From Clostridia bacterium (GTDB taxonomy: Bacteria > Bacillota > Clostridia > Christensenellales > UBA1242), in assembly GCA_017408305.1 (NCBI GenBank), contig JAFQUU010000009.1, positions 1 through 42,809 of the forward strand: DNA of 42,809 nucleotides, read 5' to 3'. Below the pieces are notes generated by a model. That model saw only the letters and a program-made list of their open reading frames with translations, was not told the origin of the DNA and ran no database searches. The translations under genes and the position numbers were made by a program. Each line of letters begins with the position of its first letter. Position 1 is the stretch's first letter. Of the stretch, positions 986 to 31,753 are shown one piece after another.

Positions 986-1576
986 ATGAGTGAAAATTTT
1001 CGAGTTAAAAATGCAAAATATCTAACAAGTGCAGTGCATAGAGACAATTTTTTAAATGAGTTTCCAGAAGTGGCTTTTGTTGGCAGAAGTAATGTCGGCA
1101 AAAGCAGTTTAATCAATAATTTGGTTAATCAAAGACGCCTTGCCAAAACCTCGTCAACTGCAGGACTTACCAAAATGGTGAATTATTTTTTGGTCAATGG
1201 CAATATGTATTTTGTTGACCTCCCTGGCTATGGATATTCCCAAACAGGCAAAAAGCATAGGGAGATTTGGAGCGATTTGATTGAAGATTATTTACTTCTT
1301 AGCGAAAACCTAAAACTTGTGCTTCTTCTTGTGGATATACGCCATAAGCCTACAGAACTTGATATGCTTATGCAAAAATTTTTGTATGTGCATAATATCC
1401 CTTATCGCATTATTGCCACCAAGGCAGACAAGATTGCAAAAAGCAAGGTGGGGCAGTACCTTACCGAAATTGCAAAGGTTTTGCAGGTCACAAAAAACAA
1501 TATTATTCCTCACTCTTCAAGTGATGGGTTAAATAAACAAAAAATACTAGATTTGATTGGAGAAATAAATGAGTAA
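986..1576 (+). CDS. engB: Ribosome-biogenesis GTP-binding protein YsxC/EngB
   Basis: 196 aa. G1 GRSNVGKSS, G3 DLPGYG, G4 TKAD. Length and layout match EngB. Confidence 0.9.
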   Translation: MSENFRVKNAKYLTSAVHRDNFLNEFPEVAFVGRSNVGKSSLINNLVNQRRLAKTSSTAGLTKMVNYFLVNGNMYFVDLPGYGYSQTGKKHREIWSDLIEDYLLLSENLKLVLLLVDIRHKPTELDMLMQKFLYVHNIPYRIIATKADKIAKSKVGQYLTEIAKVLQVTKNNIIPHSSSDGLNKQKILDLIGEINE

Positions 1577-3512
1577 GTATGAATCAAAAGATATAGTTGT
1601 TCTTGAAGGGCTTGAAGCAGTAAGGCTTAGGCCGGGTATGTATATTGGCACAACAGGCATAAAAGGCCTTCATCACATTTTGTGGGAAATTGTTGACAAC
1701 GCTATGGACGAAGTTGCAAACGGATTTGGCGACAGCATTGAAATAACCCTTAACAAAGATGGCTCTGTTGTTGTTGAAGACAATGGCCGTGGCATACCGG
1801 TTGACATACACCCAACACAAAAGAAAAGTGGTGTTGAAGTGGTGTTTACACAACTTCACGCAGGTGGAAAGTTTAATACAGACACTTATAGTTATTCAGG
1901 TGGCCTGCATGGCGTTGGTGCAAGCGTTACAAATGCACTTTCAAGATGGCTTAAGGTTTTTGTTCACAAAAATGGCAAAAAATATGGCATAGAGTTTTCA
2001 AGTTTTGAAGATGATAAGGGCAAAATGAAATGTGGCATTCCTTCTGGCCCACTAAAAGAACTTGGCACAAGCACCAAAACAGGCACAAGGGTTGAATTTT
2101 TGCCAGACGACAGGGTGTTTGAAGGGCTAAAACTTGAGTATGAAACAATCTCTAAACGCCTTCGTGAACTTGCGTTTTTAAACAAGGGTGTAAAACTTAA
2201 ACTTATTGACAAAAAAACAGGTCAGGAAGAAGAATTTTGCTATGAAGGTGGCATAAAAGATTTTGCACTATACCTAAATGAAGGCAAAGGCAAACTTTAT
2301 CACAACCCTGTGTATTTAACTGCTGAAGACAAAAAAATCAAGATGGAACTTGCTTTTCAGCACACAGACAACTATACAGATAACATCATAAGTTATGTGA
2401 ACAACATTCCAACCACAGAGGGTGGCACACACGAAGTTGGCTTTAAGGGTGGGTTTACAAAGTTTATGAACGACTATGCCCGCAAAAACAACCTTTTAAA
2501 AGAAAAAGAAGCAAATCTTATTGGTGATGACTTTAGGGAAGGGCTTACGGCTGTTCTTTCAATCAAAATGAACAACATTCAGTTTGAAGGGCAAACAAAA
2601 ACAAAACTTGGTAACCCTGAAGCCAAGGTTGTTGTTGAAAAACTTGTGATTCAAGAACTTACAAAGTTTTTTACTGGCACAGCAAACAACAAACTTGCTG
2701 AAATTATTTTAAATAAGGCCAAGGGCGCTGCAAAAGTAAGAGAGGCAGCAAGAAAAGCCAAGGAAATCACAAGGGTGAAAAACAGCCTTGATAACTACAA
2801 TCTTGTGGGCAAACTTTCAAACTGCACTGGCAGAAAACCTGAACAATCAGAACTTTTCATCGTGGAAGGTGACAGTGCTGGTGGCAGTGCAAAACAGGGA
2901 AGAGATAGGCGTTTTCAGGCAATCCTGCCACTTAAGGGTAAACCACTTAATGCAGAGAAAAAACGCCTTGACCAAGTGCTTGCCAATGAAGAAATACGCA
3001 CAATCATTTCAAGCCTTGAAACAAATATTGGTGCAGACTTTAATATCAAAAACCTAAGATACCACAAGGTTATTATCCTTTCCGATGCCGACCAAGATGG
3101 TGCACATATTAGGGCAATCCTTTGCACATTCTTCTTTAGGTATATGAAAGAACTTATCACAAACGGAAATGTTTATATTGGGCTTCCACCACTATATAAG
3201 GTTTATAAGGCAAACAAGACCCTTTATGTTTACAGTGATGAAGAACTGCCAAAAGCAATCAAAGAAGTGGGCAGAGGATATCAAATTCAAAGATATAAAG
3301 GTCTTGGTGAAATGAACCCTGAACAACTTTGGGAAACAACTATGGACCCTGAAAAAAGAACCCTTGTTAATGTTACGCTTGAAGATGCTGTTGAAGCAGA
3401 AAAACTTGTGGTAACCCTTATGGGTGATGACATAAACGCAAGAAAAGAATACATCAACAAACACGCAAACTTTAATAGAGTTGACGAGTTTATGAAAAAG
3501 ATTTCAAAGTAG
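1569..3512 (+). CDS. Type IIA DNA topoisomerase subunit B (GyrB/ParE family; ParE-like by context)
   Basis: 647 aa. LEGLEAVRLRPGMYIG N-terminus, TOPRIM EGDSAGGSAKQGRDR, PLKGKPLN. Not adjacent to dnaA/dnaN/recF. Confidence 0.9.
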   Translation: MSKYESKDIVVLEGLEAVRLRPGMYIGTTGIKGLHHILWEIVDNAMDEVANGFGDSIEITLNKDGSVVVEDNGRGIPVDIHPTQKKSGVEVVFTQLHAGGKFNTDTYSYSGGLHGVGASVTNALSRWLKVFVHKNGKKYGIEFSSFEDDKGKMKCGIPSGPLKELGTSTKTGTRVEFLPDDRVFEGLKLEYETISKRLRELAFLNKGVKLKLIDKKTGQEEEFCYEGGIKDFALYLNEGKGKLYHNPVYLTAEDKKIKMELAFQHTDNYTDNIISYVNNIPTTEGGTHEVGFKGGFTKFMNDYARKNNLLKEKEANLIGDDFREGLTAVLSIKMNNIQFEGQTKTKLGNPEAKVVVEKLVIQELTKFFTGTANNKLAEIILNKAKGAAKVREAARKAKEITRVKNSLDNYNLVGKLSNCTGRKPEQSELFIVEGDSAGGSAKQGRDRRFQAILPLKGKPLNAEKKRLDQVLANEEIRTIISSLETNIGADFNIKNLRYHKVIILSDADQDGAHIRAILCTFFFRYMKELITNGNVYIGLPPLYKVYKANKTLYVYSDEELPKAIKEVGRGYQIQRYKGLGEMNPEQLWETTMDPEKRTLVNVTLEDAVEAEKLVVTLMGDDINARKEYINKHANFNRVDEFMKKISK

Positions 3513-3525
3513 GAGAAAATTTTAA

Positions 3526-5964
3526 GTGAAAACGAAAAAACAAACTCAAGCCCCACCAAAAAATTCAATCATTTTTAAAACCCTTAACACTGTGCTTCAT
3601 GAAAGTATGATTCCTTACACAGAACATGTTGTTATGGACAGGGCTCTGCCAAGGGTTGAAGATGGCTTAAAACCAGTGCAACGCAGAATTTTGTATTCTA
3701 TGTTTGAACTTGGCGTTATGCCAGACAAACCTTACAGAAAATCTGCCCGTATTGTTGGTGATTGCATGGGTAAATATCACCCACATGGCGACAGCAGTGT
3801 TTATGATGCAATGGTGCGTATGGCACAAAACTTTGTGCTGAAGGCCCCACTTGTTGATGGGCACGGCAACTTTGGCAGTATTGATGGCGATAGCGCAGCG
3901 GCAATGCGTTATACAGAAGCACGCCTTGCACCACTTGCACTTGAACTGCTTAAGGACCTTGAAAAAAATACGGTTGACTGGACTCTTAATTTTGATGACA
4001 CACTTAAAGAACCAGTAACGCTTCCAGGACGCTTTCCAAACCTTTTGGTTAATGGTGCAACTGGCATTGCAGTTGGCGTTGCAACAAACATCCCACCACA
4101 CAACTTGTCTGAGGTTATTGATGGTGTTTGTGCGTACATCAAAAACCCAAAAATTTCGCTTACAAACATGATGAAATACATTAAGGCTCCAGACTTTCCA
4201 ACCGGTGGCAATATTATTGTAGGTAATGGGCTTAGGGACGCATATGCAACAGGTAAGGGCAAAATTGTTATTCAGGCAAAAACACATATTGAAAAAACGG
4301 GAGACAAGTCTGCAATTGTAATTACTGAAATTCCTTATCAAGTGAATAAGGCACAACTTCTTCAAAAAATTGCAGAACTTAAAGAAAAAGAGAAAAATCT
4401 TTTGTCTTATATTGGCGAAATCACTGATGAGACAGACCGTAATGGCCTAAGGGCAGTGATTAAAATCAAAAAAGGTGGCAACGCAAAGGCAATCCTAAAT
4501 TACCTTCTTAAAAACACCAATCTTCAGCAAAACTACAACATCAATATGGTGGCAATTGCAGGTGGCAAACCAAAACTTATGGGGCTTCTTGACATTATTG
4601 CTTACTATTCAGATTATCAAATCCAAGTCATTGTAAGGCGTACAAAACACCTTCTTGATGAGGCAGAAGACAGGGCCCACATTGTTGAAGGGCTTCTTGT
4701 TGCAATCAAAAATATTGACGACATCATCAAGATTATTAAAACTTCTCCAACCACTGCAGTTGCTAAAGAACGCATAATGAAAAAGTTTAAACTTTCAGAC
4801 CGTCAGGCTCAGGCAATCCTTGATATGAGGATTAGTCGCCTTGTGAATATGGAAGTTAAAAAACTGCAAGAAGAGTTTAAAGAACTTAAAGAAAAAATCA
4901 AAAACTATAAGGCAATACTTGGCTCAAAAACCATGCAAGAAGACATTTTGGTTAAGGAACTTAAAGATGTAAGAAAAACTTTTGGAGGAACAAGAAGAAG
5001 CAGTCTTGAAGTTGAAAAAGAAGAAAAACAAACAGAGATTTTTGACCTTGTTGAGTGTGATGAATTCTTTGAAACAAACTATGTTGCCCTTTCTGCAGAC
5101 CATCGCCTAAAACGCATCAACGCACAAAAGGCTTCGCAAGTTAAGTATCAAAGTTATGCAGAGCCTTATGAAATTTCAACTGATGCAATCAAAATCAACG
5201 ATAACGAAGCGTTTTTTGTGTTTACAAACAAGGGTAATTGCATAAAACTTAAAGTTAAGGAACTGCCACTTGGACAGTGGAAAAGCAAAGGTCAACTTTT
5301 AAGTGAACTGAAGAAAAATATTCTTTACAGCGAGTATCCAGTAAAAATCTTGCCAATAAAAGAAGGCAAAAACCAAAGTATTATTATCTACACCAAGGCT
5401 GGCAATGCAAAAATCACACCTGTGTCAGACTTTATCAGTTCAAGAGTTATGTTTAGTGTGATAAATCTTAAAGATAAGGACACTGTGATTAATGCTGAAT
5501 ACAACGACGAAAACCAGTATATTATTGCTGTAACCAAATGGGCATATTCGCTTAAGTTTGACAAAAAAGAACTGCCTGTGCAAAAGCGTGCATCATCTGG
5601 CACAAAAATCTTTAAACTGCAAGAAGGTGATGAACTTGTGTTTGCAGGCCTTACTCAAAAAACAGGGAGTCTAACAATCCTGACCAACCAAGGCAACGGC
5701 AAAAAAGTGCCTATTGGCGACTACGAAATTACACCAAAATATCGTAGAGGCCTTAAAACAATCAACCTAAAAAGCACAAGGGAATATGTTATGTTTGCTA
5801 AGTTTTCTGCAGGCAACTTTGATATTGTGATGGAAACCAAAGAAAAACTTGTTGTTTTTGGCACAGAAAAACTTAAGTTTGAAACACGCATTGCAAAAGG
5901 CAAACAAATTGAAAAACTAAGATTTAAAAATGTGTATGCGGCAGTTGACAAGTCTACACTTTAA
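3526..5964 (+). CDS. Type IIA DNA topoisomerase subunit A (GyrA/ParC family; ParC-like)
   Basis: 812 aa, GTG start. HPHGD and [10 protein letters not shown] (catalytic Tyr region). I could not find a GyrA-box (QRRGGKG-like) in the C-terminal domain, which favours ParC. Confidence 0.9.
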
Positions 5965-21440: not shown

Positions 21441-22748
21441 TTAATCGCAAAATTTCTTTGCAAAAATATAGTCAAAAATGCCACCTACAACAAAATTAAA
21501 TAAAAGAACGCAAGGATATAAAAATGTTGTTGCGAAGCCTAGGCAAGTTGCAAAAGAAAAACCATTATTAAACAAAAGATTTAAAGAAAATACGGCAGCA
21601 ACGCCCACAAAGAAGATTGCAATTGACACAAATAAATTACTATTTGAACTGTGAATTTTCCTAAATTTGTTTTTGGTAATTAGGTAATAAAGTGCAGGAA
21701 TAGCAAATATTATTGGCATTATTAAATACGCAATTGGATACTCAACTGAGCCATATATATTTGAAAAAATTAAGTAAATTGCAAGAGAACTGACAAAAAT
21801 TAGAGAAAATATTGTTAAGTATTTAGCGAAAAGATGTTTTGTCGATATTTTACCAAAACTTTCAGCAATTTCTTCGTTATCTTCCATATTTGCAGAAAAC
21901 TTTATTTGCATATCATCATATCTTGCTTGCAACTGATTTACAGACACAAACTCATCATCATCTGCATCGCCAAGTTTTATAAAGTTTGCTGATTTGCTCA
22001 TCTCATTATATAGGGCTTCAATTTTGTCAGCATCTGTTTCTTTTTTTCTGGATGAACGAATTTTTTGAACGACTTCACCAGTAGGCTCAATTTCCAAATT
22101 AAGACCACTAAGTTTTTTTACTTTAGGTATTTTTTCTTTTGGCATGGTTTCGGTAATAAATACGCCACCATCGGTGTGGGTTTCTTCTTGAAAACCTTCA
22201 TTTTCGTAATATTTTTCTTGGCTATTTTTTTCATTTTTAGAGTCTGGAATTATGTATACATCATGGGCATCCAAAAACACTCCGTCATCTTTTGTCGTTG
22301 TTTTTTCTTCCTTTTTAAGCGTATCTAAAAAAGTTTTACTGTCAAAGTTTTGCTGTTTTTTTTGTTCCTGATTTTTTTCAGTGAACAACTTGTCATTATT
22401 TTTTTGAAAATCGCCAAATTCGTAATATTTTTTTGGGGTATTTTGACTGTCAACAGAAAAGTTTGGAAGAACAGCATTTTCTTGTTCCTCTAGATATTTT
22501 TTGCCAGAATCAGTCAATTTATAATAATGACGCTTTCCACCATTTTTGCTGTCTTTCCAATATGACGAAATAAAACCTTGTTTTTCCATTCGTGAAAGCG
22601 TGCCATATAAAGTTGGTTGTTTTACAGAGACTTGGTTATCAGATTTTTTATGTAAATCATTTAAAAGTTCGGCACCATATTTGTCGCCGTCTAATAAACA
22701 AGATAATAATATTGTGGAGATTTGTCCACGAGGAATTAAATTATTCAT
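21441..22748 (-). CDS. PadR-family transcriptional regulator fused to a C-terminal multi-TM membrane domain
   Basis: 435 aa. N-terminal winged helix (KYGAELLNDL...QPTLYGTLSRMEKQGFISSYW...RHYYKLTDSGKKYL), a low-complexity linker, then about 4 TM helices. Confidence 0.75.
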   Translation of the reverse strand: MNNLIPRGQISTILLSCLLDGDKYGAELLNDLHKKSDNQVSVKQPTLYGTLSRMEKQGFISSYWKDSKNGGKRHYYKLTDSGKKYLEEQENAVLPNFSVDSQNTPKKYYEFGDFQKNNDKLFTEKNQEQKKQQNFDSKTFLDTLKKEEKTTTKDDGVFLDAHDVYIIPDSKNEKNSQEKYYENEGFQEETHTDGGVFITETMPKEKIPKVKKLSGLNLEIEPTGEVVQKIRSSRKKETDADKIEALYNEMSKSANFIKLGDADDDEFVSVNQLQARYDDMQIKFSANMEDNEEIAESFGKISTKHLFAKYLTIFSLIFVSSLAIYLIFSNIYGSVEYPIAYLIMPIIFAIPALYYLITKNKFRKIHSSNSNLFVSIAIFFVGVAAVFSLNLLFNNGFSFATCLGFATTFLYPCVLLFNFVVGGIFDYIFAKKFCD

Positions 22749-22954: not shown

Positions 22955-22982
22955 CTTTTCGCTAAAGTTGTCTTTAGCGAAA
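22955..22982. repeat. attL (dif-like core): CTTTTCGCTAAAGTTGTCTTTAGCGAAA
   Basis: Direct repeat of 28074-28101. Internally an 11-bp inverted repeat around TTGT. Confidence 0.85.
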
Positions 22983-22984
22983 TC

Positions 22985-23131
22985 TTATAGATGACACTGT
23001 TGTTCAACAAAATCTTCTAAAATGATTCTCACTAAATCACTAGTCTTTCTACGCTTTTCCAATGCAATCTTATCTAATTGCATTTTTAATTCTTCTGGTA
23101 GGCGTACAGCAAAAAGTATTTTTTTCTGCAA
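22985..23131 (-). CDS. Ribbon-helix-helix (Arc/CopG-like) DNA-binding protein, prophage-encoded
   Basis: TTG start at 23131, downstream of AAAGGAGGTGA. 48 aa: MQKKILFAVRLPEELKMQLDKIALEKRRKTSDLVRIILEDFVEQQCHL, a beta-strand/helix/helix RHH pattern. The track ATG at 23197 would read through the SD and promoter. Confidence 0.65.
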   Translation of the reverse strand: MQKKILFAVRLPEELKMQLDKIALEKRRKTSDLVRIILEDFVEQQCHL

Positions 23132-23175
23132 GGGGAACTCACCTCCTTTTAAGTTAAATATTGTATAACAATTTA

Positions 23176-23204
23176 ATAATACAAAAAATGTTAACAAATG
23201 TCAA
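23176..23204 (-). promoter_or_regulatory. Promoter of the RHH gene (TTGACA-17-TATTAT on the - strand)
   Basis: - strand TTGACA (23204-23199), 17-nt spacer, TATTAT (23181-23176). Palindrome ATTGTATAACAAT (23160-23172) sits at about +1 as a candidate operator. Confidence 0.55.
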
Positions 23205-23249
23205 ACAAAAAACAACAAGTTTTTAAACTTATTGTTTTATATTGAATAT

Positions 23250-24257
23250 TTAATCAATAGACCGAAGTAATCGACAAATTTGACTTTCCTTTGCTCTTCT
23301 TTTTAAAGCCAAATACTCTTCTTTCGACAAATCAGTCCTTTCTAATTGTAAAGCAAGGTTATACTCTGCTAACTCTTTTCTTGATTTTTTTATACTTTCA
23401 ATTACTGCATGATTTTCTAAGTCATATAAGTCATCATAATATTTAGGTGGTTTTATTTTTAGAACCTTTCTTTTACCATCACTTAAAATTATTTCATCGG
23501 TTTGGTATATTTCATGCTTATTCTCTTCAAAAAATTTTCTAGCAATACCAGGGGAACGAGAGCAATTCATGAACTCTGGAACTAAGCCATAAGTCAAATC
23601 AGATTCTTCATTTAACACGAAACCACTTGTTTTGCCTTTTTGTTTTTTCATAACATACCGAGCAGTGTAAGCAATAGAATTCCAAGTTACCTCACCAACT
23701 GAACAAAGACCTTTATTCCATACTTTCTCTATTATTTCAGAGCGATATATTTTATCGCCTGCCTTGTTTGTGAAAAAATATTTAAGGTCATTAAGTGGGC
23801 AATTAAATAATATCATATGAAAATGTGGTCTTGACTTTTTTGTGCCATATTCACCACAACCAAAAAATCTTATATTATCTATACCAAAATGATAACTCAT
23901 GTATCTTCTTAAATCTTTCATAAATTTTTGCATATCTTTTTTAACCAAAGTTGGTTTCTTCTGCACTTCACCAGTTTGAGCATTTAAAGATTTTACAAAA
24001 GTTAAATTATCATCAGAGTAAGTCAATGTAACAAAATAATTATTAGAATGTTCTTTACTTTCAATTAAACAGCGATTGGCCCACATTCTTGAATTTGCAA
24101 GTCGGCAACCAACGCATTTTCCACAAGGAATCTCAATAGGTTCAAATATTTTTGATAAATTATCATACTCAAATTGAGTTTTAGGAAAATAAATATTTTT
24201 CTTGCCATTGGAATTTAAACCTTTTGAAATTGCATGCAAGGGACTAAAACAACTCAT
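23250..24257 (-). CDS. Microviridae replication initiation protein VP4 (rolling-circle HUH endonuclease)
   Basis: 335 aa. CGKCVGCR Zn-like N-terminus, YFVTLTY (motif 1), HFHMILFN (HUH), YTARYVMKK (catalytic Tyr motif). GAGGT RBS. Confidence 0.9.
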   Translation of the reverse strand: MSCFSPLHAISKGLNSNGKKNIYFPKTQFEYDNLSKIFEPIEIPCGKCVGCRLANSRMWANRCLIESKEHSNNYFVTLTYSDDNLTFVKSLNAQTGEVQKKPTLVKKDMQKFMKDLRRYMSYHFGIDNIRFFGCGEYGTKKSRPHFHMILFNCPLNDLKYFFTNKAGDKIYRSEIIEKVWNKGLCSVGEVTWNSIAYTARYVMKKQKGKTSGFVLNEESDLTYGLVPEFMNCSRSPGIARKFFEENKHEIYQTDEIILSDGKRKVLKIKPPKYYDDLYDLENHAVIESIKKSRKELAEYNLALQLERTDLSKEEYLALKRRAKESQICRLLRSID

Positions 24258-24576
24258 CGTTGTACCTCAACTTTCAAAATGTTTTATTTAATACTGACAA
24301 CTAAAATTGTGTCAGTCAGCACCATTACATCAAGTAACTAATTGGTGCTGACTTTGGCACAACCAAAGTATTGTATTTTTTTAAAGTAAATTTAAAGCTA
24401 TTACTTTCGGCATCCGTTCTTTAATGCGTTACTCCAAGCGATAAAGTACTTACAAAAGGGATATCCCTCTTTGCCCTTCGGCAAATTCACCCTTAGCAAT
24501 TATGCCGAATTGTAACGCCACGTTATAGAATAAATGGGAATTTTGCTAATAAAAAAAGTAATAAATATTATTACTT
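24258..24576 (-). other. Structured non-coding region of the prophage (candidate origin/regulatory region)
   Basis: No ORF longer than about 10 codons. At least five perfect stem-loops: 24294-24315, 24315-24352 (10-bp stem), 24351-24369, 24457-24468, 24470-24485. An AT hairpin at 24554-24578 follows VP2. Confidence 0.6.
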
Positions 24577-24921
24577 TTAATATAATCTTCGCATAGTCCT
24601 AGATAAATGCCTTGTAGCAAGGGCTAGTGCAGTATTAACCAACATACTAAGACCATTAGAGCTCTTCCCTACACCACTTGCAGAAGAACCGGACGGCGTT
24701 GAAGCGGCGGCACCATTGCCACCACCAAACATATTAACAGGATTTAAACCTGCTTTTTTCATGTCTTCAACTGCTCTTTGATAAGCGCTATTAGACAATT
24801 CAGTTTGCCAATCCCTTTGTTTTTGAGCTTCTTCGGCATTAAAGGCAAACTCTGCTTTTTGAGCAGAAGTTGCACCAGACAAATCATTGAATATACTCCC
24901 AATATTATCTAAAAAACTCAT
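24577..24921 (-). CDS. Microviridae minor capsid / DNA pilot protein VP2-like (short form)
   Basis: ATG 24921 follows GGGAGG, 8 nt after the VP1 stop. 114 aa. AYQRAVEDMKKAGLNPV motif and a Gly/Ser-rich C-terminal half. The track start at 25053 overlaps VP1 and is rejected. Confidence 0.7.
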   Translation of the reverse strand: MSFLDNIGSIFNDLSGATSAQKAEFAFNAEEAQKQRDWQTELSNSAYQRAVEDMKKAGLNPVNMFGGGNGAAASTPSGSSASGVGKSSNGLSMLVNTALALATRHLSRTMRRLY

Positions 24922-24931
24922 AAAGGCCTCC

Positions 24932-26611
24932 CTATAATGATTTAAGACCAGGAACTGAATAAATAGGCATAACCCTAGTACAAATATTCTTAAAGTAGAA
25001 ATCAGCAATGAATTGGTCTTCCGTAGATGAAGATACTGATAAGGTCCTATCAAGATTGGCAGTTGTTTCCTCTAACCAAGTAGAGCCAAGAACTGGTTTA
25101 GAGGTATATTTGTCTGCATAATGCCAATTATCTAATGGCTGAGTATGAGTAGAACGAAATGCACCACTAACACGAGATGGTTTATACCTATACTCTGCCC
25201 ATGCTTCCTGATAGCCGAAAACTTCATCATCAACAGTTGTGCCTTGTGCATAGATTTCCTTATTAAATACAGGCTGTTCACCAATGTTAGCAAGAGCAGG
25301 CCAATAATAGTCAAACCTCTTTTTCCTTGACCAAAAACGCTCTATTCCTTGTTGATATGTGTGTTCGGTTCTAACACAAACAAGACCAAGTAATATGCCA
25401 TGCTCAGTAAACGACTTGGTAAAGCTAGAAGATTTATCGCCTGTCAAAGAATAAGCGGCAGTATTACCTTGAGGAGATACATCATCAGTTGAGGATGTTT
25501 GTAAAACTTGAGAAATATTAATAGGAATCCTCTTACCACCAAGATACTCTGGTCTTTGCTGGCGAGCATCTGGAGAAACAACGCCAAAATGAGATTTAAT
25601 AATTTCTGCATAACGAGTACCACCACGAGCATCTCGTTCATACAACTTCTGCACTGCAAAGGCTTGTCTTAATTGGTTTATTGTTGATGCAGTTGCAGTT
25701 GATAAGTCAGCAATACCAGTTGCTTTTAGACCAGTATTTGTACCATCAAATCCAATAGTTTTGCCAGCAGTCCAAGCTGTATTGCTACCAGCTGTACTGC
25801 CAATACCAGTATAATTTGAAGTTGAAAGCAAATAAGGATTATTAGAATCAGAACTTGCAGAAACAAAAACACCTTTATCTGTACCATTAGTCCATATAGG
25901 ATTCTTGCCATCAGAAGAAAGAGAAATAGACAAAGGCGCACTAGAACCAAGTGGAATATTTACATCTGGACCTTTTTGTGGGGCTGGAAGACAACTTGTA
26001 AAATAATCATGATATTTGTTAACAGGGGCAATCCCACCTCCAGTACAGCCAGACATCAAAAAGTTGGCATAATTAAAATTGCTTAAAGTACTATTGCTAT
26101 CTGAAAGACTAAAAGATGCAGAAGATTGCAAATTTTGGTCTCTAAACCACTCATTCCATGTCAAAACGTAAGCTCTAAAAGGTAATGCCGAAACAGAAAG
26201 ATTTTTAACCCCAGTAGGAATACCCATATAATCAGCAATAGAACCTTTAAACCAACCAGTAGGTGCAATTGCTTGAGGAACCTCATACTCTGTTGGACTT
26301 TCCCAATCTGGATTACTGGATTCACCATTAAAATACTTCCAACTACTCCAAACCAACCTGTTCGGTATAAAGAAATAATAGAGGTCAAGATAACAGTTAT
26401 CCATAACAGGGTGAACAGGCGTGGTCATTCTAACCACACAAGAAGTTTCCATTTTAAAAGTATCACCAGGTAAAACTTCATCAACAAAAATTGGAATAAG
26501 TTTGCCAGCGTTAAAAGTTGTCTTATGTTGACTACTTCTATCAAAGGTTGAACGAGGCATTGACAAAAAAGTTGGATTTACAGCAAAACGACTTTCTACA
26601 TTTCTATTCAT
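24932..26611 (-). CDS. Microviridae major capsid protein VP1 (F-protein family)
   Basis: 559 aa. The N-terminus PRSTFDRSSQHKTTFNAGKLIPIFVDEVLPGDTF...MDNCYLDLYYFFIPNRLVW closely resembles chlamydiaphage-type VP1. AGGAGG RBS. Confidence 0.95.
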   Translation of the reverse strand: MNRNVESRFAVNPTFLSMPRSTFDRSSQHKTTFNAGKLIPIFVDEVLPGDTFKMETSCVVRMTTPVHPVMDNCYLDLYYFFIPNRLVWSSWKYFNGESSNPDWESPTEYEVPQAIAPTGWFKGSIADYMGIPTGVKNLSVSALPFRAYVLTWNEWFRDQNLQSSASFSLSDSNSTLSNFNYANFLMSGCTGGGIAPVNKYHDYFTSCLPAPQKGPDVNIPLGSSAPLSISLSSDGKNPIWTNGTDKGVFVSASSDSNNPYLLSTSNYTGIGSTAGSNTAWTAGKTIGFDGTNTGLKATGIADLSTATASTINQLRQAFAVQKLYERDARGGTRYAEIIKSHFGVVSPDARQQRPEYLGGKRIPINISQVLQTSSTDDVSPQGNTAAYSLTGDKSSSFTKSFTEHGILLGLVCVRTEHTYQQGIERFWSRKKRFDYYWPALANIGEQPVFNKEIYAQGTTVDDEVFGYQEAWAEYRYKPSRVSGAFRSTHTQPLDNWHYADKYTSKPVLGSTWLEETTANLDRTLSVSSSTEDQFIADFYFKNICTRVMPIYSVPGLKSL

Positions 26612-27162
26612 TAAATATTACCTCCTAAATTAACACCTTGGCTTTGAACAGGCGTGCTTTGACTTTCCATAGATACATTAATAGGTTCAACATTTTGAAC
26701 TTGAGGTTGAACAATAGGCTCTACCTTATTAATTTGTGGTTGTAAATGCTTATTTATCTTTTCTTCAAAAGTACCATTTGAAATACTTGCAACAAACTCT
26801 GACATAGAGTGGTTAAACTCAGAACGGACTGCAACAGGCATTTCTTTAAATAAGGTTTCAGCATTTAATATGATTTCTTGAGCATCATTTAAAGACTTTG
26901 GCATATTAGAAATATCTGCAAAAAATCCTTGAGATTGATTTAATGCTAAAGTATCTCCATTAACATGTCGTTCTAAAATGTTATAAACCAAACATTCTTC
27001 CTTATGAGCTTGAATTTCTTTGTAAATATTTCTTTTACCAGTTTGTTTAACTTCTTTTTTCCCAGTTTCTTTATCTATAACAAGAGAGTAAACTGGCACT
27101 ATATCTTCACCAGAGGGACTAGCTTCTACTGGTGGTTTTTTTGACCTTGAATAAAAATCCAC
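26611..27162 (-). CDS. Microviridae internal scaffolding protein VP3-like
   Basis: 183 aa, GTG start overlapping the upstream stop. IYKEIQAHKEEC...GDTLAL...AQEIILNAETLFKEMPVAVRSEFNHSMSEFV matches the VP3 pattern. Its stop overlaps the VP1 ATG (TAATG). Confidence 0.75.
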   Translation of the reverse strand: MDFYSRSKKPPVEASPSGEDIVPVYSLVIDKETGKKEVKQTGKRNIYKEIQAHKEECLVYNILERHVNGDTLALNQSQGFFADISNMPKSLNDAQEIILNAETLFKEMPVAVRSEFNHSMSEFVASISNGTFEEKINKHLQPQINKVEPIVQPQVQNVEPINVSMESQSTPVQSQGVNLGGNI

Positions 27163-27416
27163 TACTCACCTGCCTTTGTAATAACATCATTTGCTTTAAT
27201 TAAAAACTTAACTTCACTTGTCAATATTCCAGTATCATCATCAAAAGTACCTAAGCACCAAAGTTCTTTATCCTCTGGGTTTGTATTTATTGCATTTTTT
27301 TGCACTTCATTAGCACCATTTGTAAATTCACGAATGGCAACACCTTCATTATGTGTAAAGAATGGATTCATAAATCCTATTTTAGTATCTTTTATTGCGA
27401 AAACTTTTAGCTGCAT
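27162..27416 (-). CDS. Microviridae small non-structural protein (VP5/ORF5-like)
   Basis: 84 aa. KVFAIKDTKIGFMNPFF...GVAIREF...NPEDKELWCLGTFDDDTG resembles, from memory, the conserved gokushovirus ORF5 family. Confidence 0.6.
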   Translation of the reverse strand: MQLKVFAIKDTKIGFMNPFFTHNEGVAIREFTNGANEVQKNAINTNPEDKELWCLGTFDDDTGILTSEVKFLIKANDVITKAGE

Positions 27417-27591
27417 ATTTTTTATTCTCCTTTATTAATTTTTTTTGTGATTTTAATTCATTTTTAAATTCTTTTATTAACAATTTGTATTCTTCAACTG
27501 TTAATAATACAAGAGGGTAAAAATAAATTAGAGGTTTATTGTTTTTATATGTATATCTAACAATAATTTCTTTATCAATTTTTGCTCTCAT
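27382..27591 (-). CDS. Hypothetical Lys-rich prophage protein
   Basis: 69 aa. Its ATG overlaps the stop of the upstream 31-aa ORF (ATGA) and its 3' end overlaps the VP5-like start by 35 nt. No motif recognised. Confidence 0.35.
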   Translation of the reverse strand: MRAKIDKEIIVRYTYKNNKPLIYFYPLVLLTVEEYKLLIKEFKNELKSQKKLIKENKKYAAKSFRNKRY

Positions 27592-27683
27592 AAGCGAGTA
27601 CCACCACGCATTGAAGTTGGCACTATATTTATCAACTTAGATTTAACTGCTGTATGTCTAAAGATTTTTTTATCTTTTTTCAT
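27588..27683 (-). CDS. Small basic DNA-binding peptide (gokushovirus ORF8 / phiX J-like)
   Basis: Below the ORF-track size cut-off. MKKDKKIFRHTAVKSKLINIVPTSMRGGTRL (31 aa, highly basic). The C-terminal MRGGxRL resembles the chlamydiaphage ORF8 end as I remember it. Confidence 0.5.
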   Translation of the reverse strand: MKKDKKIFRHTAVKSKLINIVPTSMRGGTRL

Positions 27684-27684
27684 G

Positions 27685-28017
27685 TTAGTTGGACGACGTT
27701 TCAATGCACACCTCCTTTTTTTGTGGAGTTGATAATATTTTTTCTATTTCTGCAATAAAATCTTCTTCTGCAAAATCAATATCATTTTGTAAACACAACA
27801 TTTGAATTTGATTCAAAACAAGACTACGCTTCACTTCACCACTACCTCTGCCAATAAGTTTTTCAACTTGGTTAATAATATTAGGCAGTTTTTGGACAAT
27901 TTGAGCAAGCTTAAGTGTTTTCGTTTTTTTATTGCTTTTAAAGAAATTAACAACTGCAATAATTGATGTTACAATTGTAATACAACAGGTAACAATAATC
28001 TCTGGGTCATCAAACAT
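27685..28017 (-). CDS. Single-TM membrane protein, phage holin-like (LL-H-family resemblance)
   Basis: ATG 28017 lies 5 nt after AAGGAG. The track GTG at 28023 overlaps the SD. 110 aa. N-terminal TM (IIVTCCITIVTSIIAVVNFF), then GSGEVKRSLVLNQIQMLC...DIDFAEEDFIAEIEKIL. Confidence 0.5.
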   Translation of the reverse strand: MFDDPEIIVTCCITIVTSIIAVVNFFKSNKKTKTLKLAQIVQKLPNIINQVEKLIGRGSGEVKRSLVLNQIQMLCLQNDIDFAEEDFIAEIEKILSTPQKKEVCIETSSN

Positions 28018-28073
28018 ATTCACTCCTTCTTTAATTTAAAATTGTTATACAAGACAAAAAAACCAAAAAAAAA

Positions 28074-28101
28074 CTTTTCGCTTTAGTTGTCTTTAGCGAA
28101 A
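28074..28101. repeat. attR (dif-like core): CTTTTCGCTTTAGTTGTCTTTAGCGAAA
   Basis: Direct repeat of attL with two substitutions (AA to TT) in the left arm. The right-arm palindrome extends to 28103 (…GCGAAAAG). Confidence 0.85.
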
Positions 28102-28260
28102 AGTTAAAAGTCTCAAAATATTTTGAAAATTTGTGCCACCCTTTTCTACAAAAAAATTAAAAAAACTTAAAAATTGCATAATGATTGTTGTTATAAAACT
28201 TTAAAAGTACAAAAAATTTGCTTTTGCTGTGGAATTTGCTTGCAAAATATTGTTTAAATA

Positions 28261-28357: not shown

Positions 28358-29311
28358 TTATACACCCTGCACTAATTTATTAAAGAATTTGTTGATGTCT
28401 TGATATTGGACTTGGCACATATCATCTTCAAAAATCTTTTTGTTTGTAGAAGATATTGAAAACAATTTTCTTATAGGAGTGTTTATTAAATAATTTGTTG
28501 CAAAAACAAAATTATCATAAATATCTTCACTTTCAAACGCTGAGTATGGCAAATTTGCAATCAAACTTTCCATAAAAAGCCCTTTTGAAGAGTCCTGCAT
28601 CAAATGTTCATAAAGACCTTTGAAACAAATAACAAGTTGCAGAAGCTTTTCTGAAAAAGATTGTTTTAAAAGGTGGTTTATGTTTTGAAAGTAATCAACC
28701 AGTTTGAATTCTTTTAGTTTTTTCTTGTTTGGTGCGTAAAACAAAAATGTTGAGTCTTCTTTTTTGATGACAGGATAAATTCTTATATTATACGGCACAT
28801 TTTTACCTTGCACGCCAATTACGCCTCTTGCAGAAAAAGCAACATCATCTTGGGTGATTTCTTTGGCGATTGCATGCACAAGGTCTTTTGTAAAATAAGC
28901 CAAATTATAGTCTTCTTTGTGTGTTTCATAAAGGTTTACAGGTGCTTCTTCTGCACTTTGTTTTTTGCGTTTTTTCTTCTTTTTTTTCTTTTTACGGTTT
29001 GCCCAAGCGTATTTTAACCTTTCTTTAAAGATTACCCATTTGTTTTTAAAAAGTTTATGGGTGTTAAGTTCTATTTGAGGGTTATTAACTAAAACAAAGA
29101 GGTCTATCGTTGAAGAAGGAAGCACGGCACCAGAATAAAATGACCCAAATGGCAAAATTTCAAAGTCTTTTGATACATAAGGATTTACATCTGAAATGGC
29201 TGAAAGTGCATTTTGAACAATTGTTGTTGCAAAACCTAGGCCCTGCAGTGCCACTTCATCATTTAGGCTTTCTGCAAAATTTTTTATGGTTGATTTATCA
29301 ATTTTTATCAA
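28358..29311 (-). CDS. Hypothetical protein with a degenerate Pol-beta/CD-NTase-like nucleotidyltransferase fold and a poly-Lys insert
   Basis: 317 aa. PFGSFYSGAVLPSSTIDLFVLV resembles the hG[GS]-x(9-13)-DxD NTase motif, but the second acidic residue is Phe. Insert NRKKKKKKKKRKKQ. Confidence 0.45.
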   Translation of the reverse strand: MIKIDKSTIKNFAESLNDEVALQGLGFATTIVQNALSAISDVNPYVSKDFEILPFGSFYSGAVLPSSTIDLFVLVNNPQIELNTHKLFKNKWVIFKERLKYAWANRKKKKKKKKRKKQSAEEAPVNLYETHKEDYNLAYFTKDLVHAIAKEITQDDVAFSARGVIGVQGKNVPYNIRIYPVIKKEDSTFLFYAPNKKKLKEFKLVDYFQNINHLLKQSFSEKLLQLVICFKGLYEHLMQDSSKGLFMESLIANLPYSAFESEDIYDNFVFATNYLINTPIRKLFSISSTNKKIFEDDMCQVQYQDINKFFNKLVQGV

Positions 29312-29331: not shown

Positions 29332-30612
29332 TTATTTTTTTGGAGCCAAAATTGTTTGTCCACCCATAAATGGCCTTAAAACTTCCGGAATTGTAACTGT
29401 GCCATCGGCATTTTGGAATTGTTCTACAATTGCTGGCATAAGGCGTGTTGTTGCAAGCCCAGATGCATTAAGGATATGGCAAAACTTGTTTTTGCCTGTT
29501 TTTGAGTCTTTATAGCGAATGTTGCCCCTTCTTGCTTGATAGTCCCTAGCGTTGCTGGCAGAAGAAACTTCCTTATAGATATTCATGCTTGGAAGCCAAA
29601 CTTCTATATCATAAGTGCGTGCCATACTGTGAGAACAGTCTGCAGCCGCAAGTTTGCTGGTTTGAAAATGAAGGCCAAGTTTTTCCATAAGGCTTTCTGC
29701 TTTGCCAACAAGTTCCATAAACGCTTCGTCAGATTTTTCTGGTGTTGTGTATTGAAACATTTCAACCTTATTGAATTGATATCCCCTAATCATACCTCTT
29801 TCCTCTGTGCGATAACTGCCAACCTCGCAACGATAGCAAGGAGTGTAAGCAAAGTATTTTTTAGGAAGGTCTTCTTCTTTCAAAATTTCATTTCTGTGAT
29901 AGTTTACAAGTGCTGTTTCTGCAGTTGGCAAAATAAACTTTCTTGGTTCAACGCCTTCAAGCCAGAAAACATCTTCCTTAAATTTTGGGAACTGCCCTGC
30001 AACCAAACCACTTTCGTAATTTAAGATGTGTGGTGGCAAAATAAATTCATAACCATCTTTAAGGTGTTCTGAAATAAAGAAATTTAAAAGTGCCCATTCA
30101 AGCCTTGCACCATCGCCCTTGTAAATCCAAGTGCCACGCCCTGAAATTTTGCTTGCCCTTTCATAGTCAATAAGCCCAAGGCTTTCGCAAAGTTCAACAT
30201 GGTCTTTAGGTTCAAAATCAAAATGTGGTTTTTCGCCAAAAACATTAACAGGCTTATTGTTTTCTTTGCCACCAGGAAGCAGGTCTGCATCAGGAATGTT
30301 TGGAAGTGCTGACATAAAATCAAAAATCTTATCACTAAGCACCTTAACTTGTTCATCAAGGGCTTCAATTTCTTTGTTTATGCCCTTCACTTCTTGAAAG
30401 ATATGTTCTGCACTTTGGCCGGCTTTTTTAAGTGCTGGAACCTCAGATGACAAGGTGTTTCTTTTGGCCTTAAGTTCATCAGCCTTTGCCATAAGGCGAT
30501 TTTTTGTTTCATAGTCTTTAAGAAGTTCGTCAAAGTTTGTGTCCCAATTTTTCTTAAGAAGGGCCTGCCTTACTTTTTCTGGGTTTTCTTTAATTAAATT
30601 AATATCAATCAT
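29332..30612 (-). CDS. serS: Seryl-tRNA synthetase
   Basis: 426 aa from ATG 30612 (MIDINLIKENPEKV...). Coiled-coil tRNA arm and class II motifs (RGYQFNKVEMF, GLATTRL). The track start at 30714 is an upstream extension. Confidence 0.95.
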   Translation of the reverse strand: MIDINLIKENPEKVRQALLKKNWDTNFDELLKDYETKNRLMAKADELKAKRNTLSSEVPALKKAGQSAEHIFQEVKGINKEIEALDEQVKVLSDKIFDFMSALPNIPDADLLPGGKENNKPVNVFGEKPHFDFEPKDHVELCESLGLIDYERASKISGRGTWIYKGDGARLEWALLNFFISEHLKDGYEFILPPHILNYESGLVAGQFPKFKEDVFWLEGVEPRKFILPTAETALVNYHRNEILKEEDLPKKYFAYTPCYRCEVGSYRTEERGMIRGYQFNKVEMFQYTTPEKSDEAFMELVGKAESLMEKLGLHFQTSKLAAADCSHSMARTYDIEVWLPSMNIYKEVSSASNARDYQARRGNIRYKDSKTGKNKFCHILNASGLATTRLMPAIVEQFQNADGTVTIPEVLRPFMGGQTILAPKK

Positions 30613-30712: not shown

Positions 30713-31753
30713 ATGAGTCAGTACTTTATTGAAAGAGATAAAAAAAATTTGAATGAAATTAAAAATTATCAAAAAAAACTGCCTTCTTTTTGCCAAAATT
30801 ATTTTTTGGATAAAGAAACCACTTCTTCCACTTCTACCCGTCTTGCAATTGCTATAGACCTAAGCGTTTTTTTTGAGTTTATTAAAAAATACAAATTTTC
30901 TGGCACTAAAGTTGAAAATATCTCCTACCACCAAATGTCTAAAATTGAAAGTGATGATATTTCAAGTTTCTTAAGTTATATTTCTTACTACGAGCATAAT
31001 GGAAAAAACTATAAAAACTCCAATAACGGAAAGTCCAGAAAACTTGCAAGCATTAGAAGCCTATTTAAATGGCTTTATAAGAAAAATTACATACAAAGTG
31101 ATGTCGCTGCCAAAATTGATACACCAAAAAAGCACGAAAAGCCTATTGTTAGGCTTGAGGCAGATGAAGTTGCAAAGATGCTTAACACCACAGAAGATGG
31201 AAGTTTTGAAATGTCAAAACGCCAAGTAAAATACCTGCAAAACACTTCTAAACGAGACACTGCCATCTTAACGCTTTTTTTGTCAACAGGAATTCGCGTA
31301 AGCGAATGTGTTGGGCTTGACCTTGATGACTTTGATTTTGACAACAATGCATTTAAAATCACAAGAAAAGGTGGCAATCAAACAATCTTGTATTTTACTG
31401 AAGAAACCAAAGACGCCCTGCTTGATTGGCTTGAGGTTAGAGCAAATTCTATGATTCCAGAAGAAGAAACTGCGATGTTCACTTCACTACAAAAAAGACG
31501 GCTTACTGTTCGGGCTGTTGAATACATCGTAAAAAAATATGCAAAGTTTGTAAACCCACTGAAAAAAATATCCCCACATAAACTGAGAAGCACTTTTGGC
31601 ACCAACCTATATCGTGGGACAGGCGATATTTATATTGTTGCAGATGTTTTGGGACATAAAGATATTAATGTAACAAAACGCCACTATGCAGCCATTGCAG
31701 AAGACTCTAAAAAAACTGCTGCCCAAATTATAAAACTTAGAGATAAAAAATAG
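30713..31753 (+). CDS. Xer-family tyrosine recombinase, XerS-like (long N-terminal domain)
   Basis: 346 aa. Catalytic blocks TGIRVSECVGLDLDDF (Arg), ITRKGGNQT (Lys hairpin), HKLRSTFGTNLY (HxxR), LGHKDINVTKRHY (His, Tyr). Length and the RKGG block resemble streptococcal XerS rather than the ~300-aa XerC/D. Confidence 0.85.
   Translation: MSQYFIERDKKNLNEIKNYQKKLPSFCQNYFLDKETTSSTSTRLAIAIDLSVFFEFIKKYKFSGTKVENISYHQMSKIESDDISSFLSYISYYEHNGKNYKNSNNGKSRKLASIRSLFKWLYKKNYIQSDVAAKIDTPKKHEKPIVRLEADEVAKMLNTTEDGSFEMSKRQVKYLQNTSKRDTAILTLFLSTGIRVSECVGLDLDDFDFDNNAFKITRKGGNQTILYFTEETKDALLDWLEVRANSMIPEEETAMFTSLQKRRLTVRAVEYIVKKYAKFVNPLKKISPHKLRSTFGTNLYRGTGDIYIVADVLGHKDINVTKRHYAAIAEDSKKTAAQIIKLRDKK

Follow-up and report, generated by a model that had tools for sequence, protein, structure and literature searches.

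A XerS-related recombinase and a symmetric dif site flanking a microvirus prophage at the replication terminus of an uncultured Clostridia bacterium

The xer gene and the prophage junctions

The DNA analysed, hereafter the window, is a 42,809-nt stretch of DNA of an uncultured gut Clostridia bacterium that carries a tyrosine recombinase gene (xer) and an integrase-less microvirus prophage bounded by two copies of a 28-bp site. With a probability of roughly two in three, xer is considered to encode the chromosome-dimer-resolution recombinase of an uncultured, spore-forming, low-GC lineage of Clostridia, acting on a 28-bp dif site at the replication terminus, a site that the microvirus exploits. 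The features on which this reading depends are the following.

30713-31753, plus strand: xer, 346-aa XerS-related tyrosine recombinase (ATG start, from the listing of open reading frames)
31295-31297, 31367-31369 and 31577-31579, plus strand: codons of the catalytic residues R195, K219 and H289 (from alignment)
31586-31588, 31655-31657 and 31685-31687, plus strand: codons of the catalytic residues R292, H315 and Y325 (from alignment)
22956-22983, no strand assigned: attL, hybrid dif, TTTTCGCTAAA GTTGTC TTTAGCGAAAT, with host-type left arm and centre
22984-28074, minus strand: gokushovirus-like microvirus prophage, integrase-less, 5.1 kb (from gene content)
28075-28102, no strand assigned: attR, hybrid dif, TTTTCGCTTTA GTTGTC TTTAGCGAAAA, with host-type centre and right arm

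An earlier note on this DNA had described xer as a 346-aa recombinase gene with a full R-K-H-R-H-Y set, and this was confirmed by the listing of open reading frames (ORFs), a Pfam Phage_integrase match (109.5 bits) and residue alignment. In alignments with XerD (1a0p) and reference Xer sequences, R195 fell in TGIRVSE, K219 in the T-RKGG hairpin, H289 and R292 in PHKLR and H315 in LGH, with Y325 as the sixth residue. All six were invariant across 57 family members. The hairpin reads ITRKGG, as had been noted; XerS has VTRKGG or VIRKGG at this place and XerC/D GKGxK. The protein is a two-domain tyrosine recombinase with the R-K-H-R-H/W-Y set and without an arm-binding domain. Its AlphaFold model has a predicted local distance difference test score (pLDDT) of 86.6, and the top PDB matches of the predicted fold (Foldseek) were XerA, XerD and XerH. 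A tyrosine-recombinase hidden Markov model (HMM) run over all window ORFs of at least 100 aa matched this gene only, so that xer is, as claimed, the sole recombinase of the window. Its start lies 2,611 bp from the right prophage junction, close to the 2.6 kb given before, and the left junction is 7.7 kb away.

The junction repeat is present in exactly two copies in the window, against zero expected. In attL, which is a nearly intact dif at the switch of GC skew and gene strand, the right arm is of phage type and carries one outer mismatch. In attR, the left arm is of phage type and carries two inner mismatches. The intact host dif (attB) was inferred to be TTTTCGCTAAA GTTGTC TTTAGCGAAAA, with 11-bp arms that are identical inverted repeats and an asymmetric centre. 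The inferred phage site (attP), TTTTCGCTTTA GTTGTC TTTAGCGAAAT, shares 25 of 28 positions with attB, the central 6 bp included. A related locus, L008 (xer 76% identical), is free of prophage and holds a single perfect site, TTTTCGTTAAA GTTGAC TTTAACGAAAA, at L008:2560-2587. Its gene order is that of the window: PadR-like gene, 317-aa gene, seryl-tRNA synthetase, xer, MiaA, MutL, MutS. The reconstructed empty intergenic region of the window aligned poorly with L008 over its whole length, except at the end by the PadR gene, so host and phage half-sites were told apart by gene order, by the sequence next to them and by the palindromic form of the sites in relatives. Integrated contigs were assembled from at least three samples, so the prophage is not an assembly chimera. 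It encodes Rep, pilot, capsid, scaffold, ORF5-like, holin-like and ribbon-helix-helix (RHH) proteins only, and no recombinase. Traits of an integrative mobile element that exploits Xer (IMEX) were found together: an element without its own recombinase, flanked by dif and a dif mimic, and an empty site in a relative.

Placement of the recombinase among Xer proteins

Reference Xer sequences were taken from Table S3 of PMC9765430. Against NCBIfam models, the window protein scored 187.1 bits with XerS (NF003462, over model positions 4-356 of 360), 164.5 bits with XerC (TIGR02224), 160 bits with XerA and 148.1 bits with XerD (TIGR02225). The curated cutoffs are 267 for XerS, 335 for XerC and 330 for XerD; none of these three was reached. 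XerS was the top model in 11 of the 11 family members tested, with the same ranking by E-value, and none of the 11 reached the XerS cutoff. BLASTP aligned the protein with L. lactis XerS from end to end (348 aa at 28% identity, 110 bits); XerC and XerD gave partial matches only (84-87 bits), and XerH was the most distant reference (58 bits). The family is large and continuous. In a full-library search, 686 clusters at 50% identity matched at E <= 1e-30, and the best 150 matches were mostly 340-362 aa long and aligned near full length. XerS was the closest reference for 93 of 130 family representatives and XerC or XerD for 35.

A neighbour-joining tree was built from 30 family representatives and 11 references. 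The family and XerS formed a clade with 99.5% bootstrap support, outside which fell XerC/D, XerA and XerH; the family alone was monophyletic (72%) and sister to XerS, not nested inside it. Family-plus-XerS support had been 48% in a smaller tree (11 family members and 11 references), which was superseded by the wider sampling. Four traits are shared with XerS only: the N-terminal extension, some 13 inserted residues ahead of the RD...TG.R.SE box, the T-RKGG hairpin and PHKLR. By sequence, the window protein is placed in a sister family of XerS, and it is not classed as a XerS orthologue because its score of 187 bits falls short of the cutoff (267) and its identity to XerS is only 26-28% (up to 34% for other family members). 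The XerS likeness proposed in the earlier note therefore stands as a relationship, through the top model and the 99.5% clade, and falls as orthology. The poorer fit to XerC/XerD, proposed with it, is in line with the model scores, the partial BLASTP matches and the tree.

It is very improbable that xer is a mobile-element or domesticated phage integrase lying near the prophage by chance. PHROG integrase families do match the protein (phrog_1, 144 bits), and copies at 43-47% identity occur on two unannotated 'Bacteriophage sp.' gut contigs. Against this, named phage integrases, those of isolates, are at most about 28% identical, and the phylogeny, by which the earlier note had proposed to judge the matter, groups the protein with XerS and not among the integrases of phages or integrative and conjugative elements. 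No mobile-element genes were found around xer, which lies outside the att-bounded prophage. Pfam scans of 20 other larger window ORFs returned housekeeping and sporulation genes only, among them a GyrB/GyrA-type pair, the SpoIIIA operon, XseA, YqfD, Era, RecO, RNase Y, MiaA, MutL, MutS, a penicillin-binding protein and RecA. At least 561 relatives of xer were found in GTDB species genomes, and the best 80 all came from metagenome-assembled genomes (MAGs) of uncultured Clostridia, on separate contigs, at 52-64% identity. One tyrosine recombinase was detected per locus, with no second within 10 kb in 93 loci (HMM search). Since the housekeeping neighbours are kept in more than 80 species and each fetched locus holds one copy, xer is a vertically inherited chromosomal host gene and not a mobile-element integrase.

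The 28-bp site at the terminus

A replication terminus lies within the window. Up to about 22 kb the GC skew is positive, beyond that point it is negative, and gene orientation flips from plus to minus between 21.2 and 21.4 kb. The earlier note had allowed for a canonical dif at the skew switch; in the window, matches to B. subtilis dif, E. coli dif and difSL did not rise above shuffled controls, and the palindromic 28-bp site lies there instead. About 48 of 80 loci carry a site of the same 11-6-11 layout upstream of xer (two matches in 120 shuffles of the control), usually at 1.0-2.9 kb, with a median of 2.5 kb and a maximum of about 10 kb. The consensus is TAT[T/G]CG[C/T]AAAA - STTGTS - TTTT[G/A]CG[A/C]ATA, with symmetric arms of 11 bp, extendable to 14 bp, set 6 bp apart. 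When skew was computed over 6 kb on each side of the site, the left side was higher in 35 of 35 loci and the sign changed from positive to negative at the site in 33 of them. The cumulative skew maximum lay at a median of 2.7 kb from the site, versus 5.3 kb for random positions. Because of its 11-6-11 layout, its inverted-repeat arms and its position at the sign change of GC skew, the 28-bp site is a dif. A role as transcription terminator or operator was considered and rejected, as it leaves terminus position, cross-species conservation and phage mimicry unexplained.

The link between gene and site extends to distant family members. In L298 (41% identical, GC 44%, 2.5-Mb contig), the site TATCGGATAAA TATCAG TTTTTCCGATA lies 39 bp before the xer ATG, and in L299 (44% identical, GC 52%) GCGTCGCAAAA TGTCAA TTTTACGACGC lies 33 bp before it. 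Both are at the switch of skew and gene strand. In the branch of the window, one or two genes (1-3 kb) stand between dif and xer: a nucleotidyltransferase-fold gene and, often, serS too. Two loci showed a second site; that of L017 is inside the PadR-like coding region and was taken as chance, and that of L046 is weak.

The arms vary between species and do so together. The variants include TATTCGCAAAA/TTTTGCGAATA, TATGCGTAAAA/TTTTACGCATA, TATGCGCAAAA/TTTTGCGCATA, TATTCGTAAAA/TTTTACGAATA and TCTGCGTAAAA/TTTTACGCAGA. Two-sided changes were counted at 7 of 14 arm positions (43 cells), and one-sided changes were rare, although the filter used to select sites would admit them. The covariation score was 0.27, compared with 0.10 +/- 0.014 after shuffling (0 of 500 shuffles reached 0.27), and pairing did not exceed 55% when the register was slid. 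The arms being identical and co-varying between species, one protein species would be expected on both, and the enzyme appears to work alone; this is the main argument for a single recombinase.

The alternative is that the protein is half of a two-recombinase Xer system, with a XerC- or XerD-like partner encoded elsewhere and a heterotetramer formed on the site. CodV/RipX pairs are used by most Firmicutes (PMC5357621), the XerC and XerD models still reach 148-165 bits, and XerC or XerD is the closest reference for the 35 of 130 representatives mentioned above. The recombinase census was made at the loci, over 10 kb around xer and not over whole genomes, which leaves room for a partner, a second Xer, elsewhere in the genome. 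Such a pair is nonetheless judged unlikely. Identical arms that co-vary across dozens of species would call for two paralogues of equal DNA specificity, which would be unusual; the 93 loci hold no second tyrosine recombinase; and gene and site are linked as in the single-recombinase XerS and XerH systems (PMC5357621).

Microvirus integration and comparison with known systems

The association of a microvirus with this site was met a second time. In L036 (xer 55% identical), a different microvirus, with VP1 48% and VP4 43% identical to those of the window phage, lies between the sites TATTCACAAAA GGCAAC TTTTTAAAATA and TATTCACAAAA GACAGC TTTTGCGAATA, the latter 1.05 kb from xer. The RHH gene ends 1 nt from att in both prophages (window 22985-23131; L036:5160-5302). 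The sole RHH homologue in GenBank phage records belongs to Dipodfec virus UOA04_Rod_907 (OQ686930.1), a free circular microvirus of 5,062 nt, in which the RHH gene (3565-3714) is followed about 31 nt later by the dif mimic TTTTCGCAAAA GACAGC TTGCACGAAAT. The att of each phage copies the dif variant of its own host.

In the proposed reaction, one Xer monomer would bind each dif arm, as expected from the chemistry of the family, and four monomers would synapse two sites. Y325 would cleave at the edges of the central region, and strands would be exchanged via a Holliday junction. By analogy with other Xer systems (PMC5357621, PMC2965235) and with phage EC6098 (PMC7062461), the double-stranded replicative form of the phage would be recombined with dif by the host enzyme, which would leave a prophage with a hybrid site at either end. 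Excision by this enzyme should also be possible, and the reaction is predicted to be reversible, because both hybrid sites keep two arms and an identical centre. Control of recombination by FtsK/SpoIIIE is presumed. Integration of the microvirus by the host Xer, as read from the genomes compared here, is supported because the linkage of site and xer is conserved across the family and the microvirus link recurs independently.

A second alternative accepts the host Xer and holds that the microvirus was inserted by another enzyme, either its own HUH Rep (VP4) or an unlinked integrase, the palindrome being a preferred target or hairpin. Xer catalysis is here a prediction, Rep proteins of microviruses nick DNA, and the two site copies of the window are followed by terminator-like T-runs on the minus strand. 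This explanation is nevertheless regarded as quite improbable. At the junctions stand two complete 28-bp copies in direct orientation, with the exchange falling within the site, which is the signature of a tyrosine-recombinase crossover, and the att of each phage follows the dif variant of its own host. In L008 the real terminator of the gene is a separate hairpin, and the site has no T-run. In E. coli, integration of gokushoviruses was found by experiment to need XerC and both arms of the dif motif (PMC7062461); a xerD mutant also failed to integrate the phage, but complementation gave no rescue (PMC7062461).

Several points weigh against integration of the microvirus by a lone host Xer at a conserved terminal dif. 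About 25 related loci with full flanks gave no site within 10 kb, so that linkage is not universal. The cumulative skew maximum places the terminus at kilobase scale only. The 6-bp centre was deduced from conservation, and cleavage mapping of difSL gave 11 bp. The trees are neighbour-joining trees with only 11 reference sequences. Sites were chosen for at least 9 of 11 palindromic positions, which inflates the paired percentage and not the two-sided count, and the arm covariation is equally compatible with a conserved hairpin. Pfam scans found no FtsK gene in the window. An exact VP1 look-up returned integrated copies only and no free circle of the window phage. The scope of the recombinase census, given above, belongs with these.

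The nearest characterised relative of the window protein by HMM, BLAST and tree is XerS. The XerS/difSL system of streptococci and lactococci is reportedly the subject of Le Bourgeois 2007. The window protein resembles XerS in length (346 aa here, 356 aa in XerS) and in the linkage of gene to site, the L298 and L299 sites standing immediately upstream of xer, as is the case for xerS. At 7 of 10 positions, the arm ATTCGCAAAA agrees with the left repeat of difSL, TTTCCGAAAA. The window protein differs in that it lacks the inserts DGEPYFY and ENIKGKLFLG and has HKLRS where XerS has HKLRH. The hosts are Clostridia here and Lactobacillales for XerS, and in the branch of the window dif is 1-3 kb from xer. 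In the published accounts of XerS/difSL (Nolivos 2010 PMC2965235; review PMC5357621), difSL is the point of comparison for the site: it has 31 bp, unequal arms and an 11-bp centre defined by cleavage, whereas the arms here are symmetric and 6 bp apart, with the centre set by conservation.

In its logic, the closest precedent is XerL/dif of Legionellales with the IMEX LME-1 (PMC9765430). There too a lone divergent recombinase is found, the dif arms are long uninterrupted inverted repeats, and the system was revealed by a mobile element with a dif mimic integrating at the terminus. However, XerL is a much longer and different protein, and xerL is more than 400 kb from dif. LME-1 is a 30-40 kb episome, in contrast with the 5-kb single-stranded DNA phage here, and XerL was tested genetically whereas the window system is a prediction from sequence. 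The Enterobacteria gokushovirus EC6098 (PMC7062461) and the Bacteroidetes microvirus proviruses (PMC3091885) are likewise integrase-less and lie at the terminus between the host dif and an 11-6-11 mimic; both sites are kept and excision should be possible. Their hosts use XerC/XerD on asymmetric arms, whereas here the site is symmetric, with a XerS-related enzyme nearby, the host is a Gram-positive Clostridia MAG and an RHH gene abuts attP. XerH/difH of Helicobacter and Campylobacter (PMC3325230; 5jjv, 5jk0) is similar in its lone recombinase (about 355 aa, the N-terminal domain being larger), in the nearness of gene to site and in inner arms that are A-tracts flanking the centre (AGTTATGAAAA). 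XerH was also a top structural match, but by sequence it is the most distant reference and forms a separate clade in the tree.

Among the full texts searched, no paper on a single-Xer system in Clostridia was found, and those on microvirus prophages and dif gave no microvirus using a non-XerCD system; the view that capture of a microvirus by a XerS-type machine was undescribed is in keeping with this. Gram-positive microvirus prophages were reported before only in Erysipelatoclostridium and Mammaliicoccus isolates, without discussion of Xer (PMC9239249). The evidence inclines us towards a fifth kind of single-recombinase Xer/dif system after XerS, XerH, XerA and XerL, namely a large XerS-sister family across uncultured gut Clostridia, each gene being linked to a dif with perfectly symmetric co-evolving arms and an asymmetric 6-bp centre, which would serve as the integration machine of a group of temperate, gokushovirus-like microviruses with an RHH-attP module. 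Chromosome-dimer resolution is characterised in few lineages. Should the family act by itself, a large share of the gut Firmicutes would depend on a XerS-type module and not on XerC/XerD. As the arms are fully symmetric, the 6-bp centre or FtsK would have to set in which order and direction strands are exchanged. The hosts and lifestyles of gut microviruses are largely unknown; the system, if true, would give these phages Gram-positive hosts and a route to lysogeny, and the dif motif with the RHH-attP module would provide a sequence rule for assigning microviruses to Clostridia hosts.

The remaining genes of the prophage and the host genes next to it are listed below.

22985-23131, minus strand: RHH protein (CopG/Arc-like), stop codon 1 nt from attL
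23250-24257, minus strand: VP4 Rep
24577-24921, minus strand: pilot protein
24932-26611, minus strand: VP1 capsid protein
26611-27162, minus strand: scaffold protein
27162-27416, minus strand: ORF5-like protein
27382-27591, minus strand: 69-aa ORF
27685 to 28017 or 28023, minus strand: holin-like protein (PHROG 6918, E 8e-8; weak Pfam Phage_holin_6_1)
21441-22748, minus strand: PadR-domain 435-aa host protein, flanking dif on the side away from xer
28358-29311, minus strand: nucleotidyltransferase-fold 317-aa host protein, between dif and xer
29332-30612, minus strand: seryl-tRNA synthetase, divergent from xer, the pairing being kept in 34 of 80 loci

A role of the RHH protein as a repressor in lysogeny is possible, as is one as an accessory or directionality factor in Xer recombination. 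Its alignment against IMG/VR gave no match, and no such att site was present in the 80 IMG/VR microviruses nearest in VP1 (at most 64% identity). In L005, L006 and L007 (~77-264) and in L016 (~226-253), close to the left end of the fetched DNA, a homologous RHH ORF immediately precedes a perfect dif, which has 16-nt arms and lies 9.7 kb from xer. The centre of these sites, GCTGTC, has the opposite orientation relative to RHH from that in the three viruses above. In L036 (1-93 and 5238-5331), the 3' end of the RHH gene and the left arm are exactly duplicated at the contig end, which suggests either tandem prophage copies or free and integrated forms breaking the assembly. The holin-like gene of the window phage seems out of the ordinary for a genome of gokushovirus type and may be a sign of a Gram-positive host.

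In 46 of 80 related loci a homologue of the 317-aa gene is present upstream of xer, on the strand opposite to it; the window, L008, L011 and L036 have the gene between dif and xer. A functional tie of its product to the dif/xer module is possible. The protein, 313-319 aa long across these loci, has a poly-lysine run and matches NTP_transf_2 weakly (25.6 bits); sequence comparison gave no relative with a known structure. A homologue of the PadR-domain gene was present within the fetched flanks in 60 of 80 loci and flanks dif in L008 and L011. Its 435-aa product has an N-terminal PadR domain followed by a long C-terminal part. In several relatives lexA directly follows xer on the same strand (L005:11091-11705; L011:11080-11727), an arrangement absent from the window. 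The GyrB/GyrA-type topoisomerase pair of the window (1569-5964, plus strand) is about 17-21 kb from the terminus and is possibly ParE/ParC.

The pattern TTCGCNAAAN6TTTNGCGAA was found in at least 120 IMG/VR contigs, none with microvirus genes, and is uninformative on the window phage. The palindromes TTCGCTAAA-N6-TTTAGCGAA of these viral contigs (mostly 35-140 kb), with the centres GTCTAA (14 times), CTCAAC (11 times) and GCTTAA (9 times), could be att/dif-like sites of other elements, or terminators.

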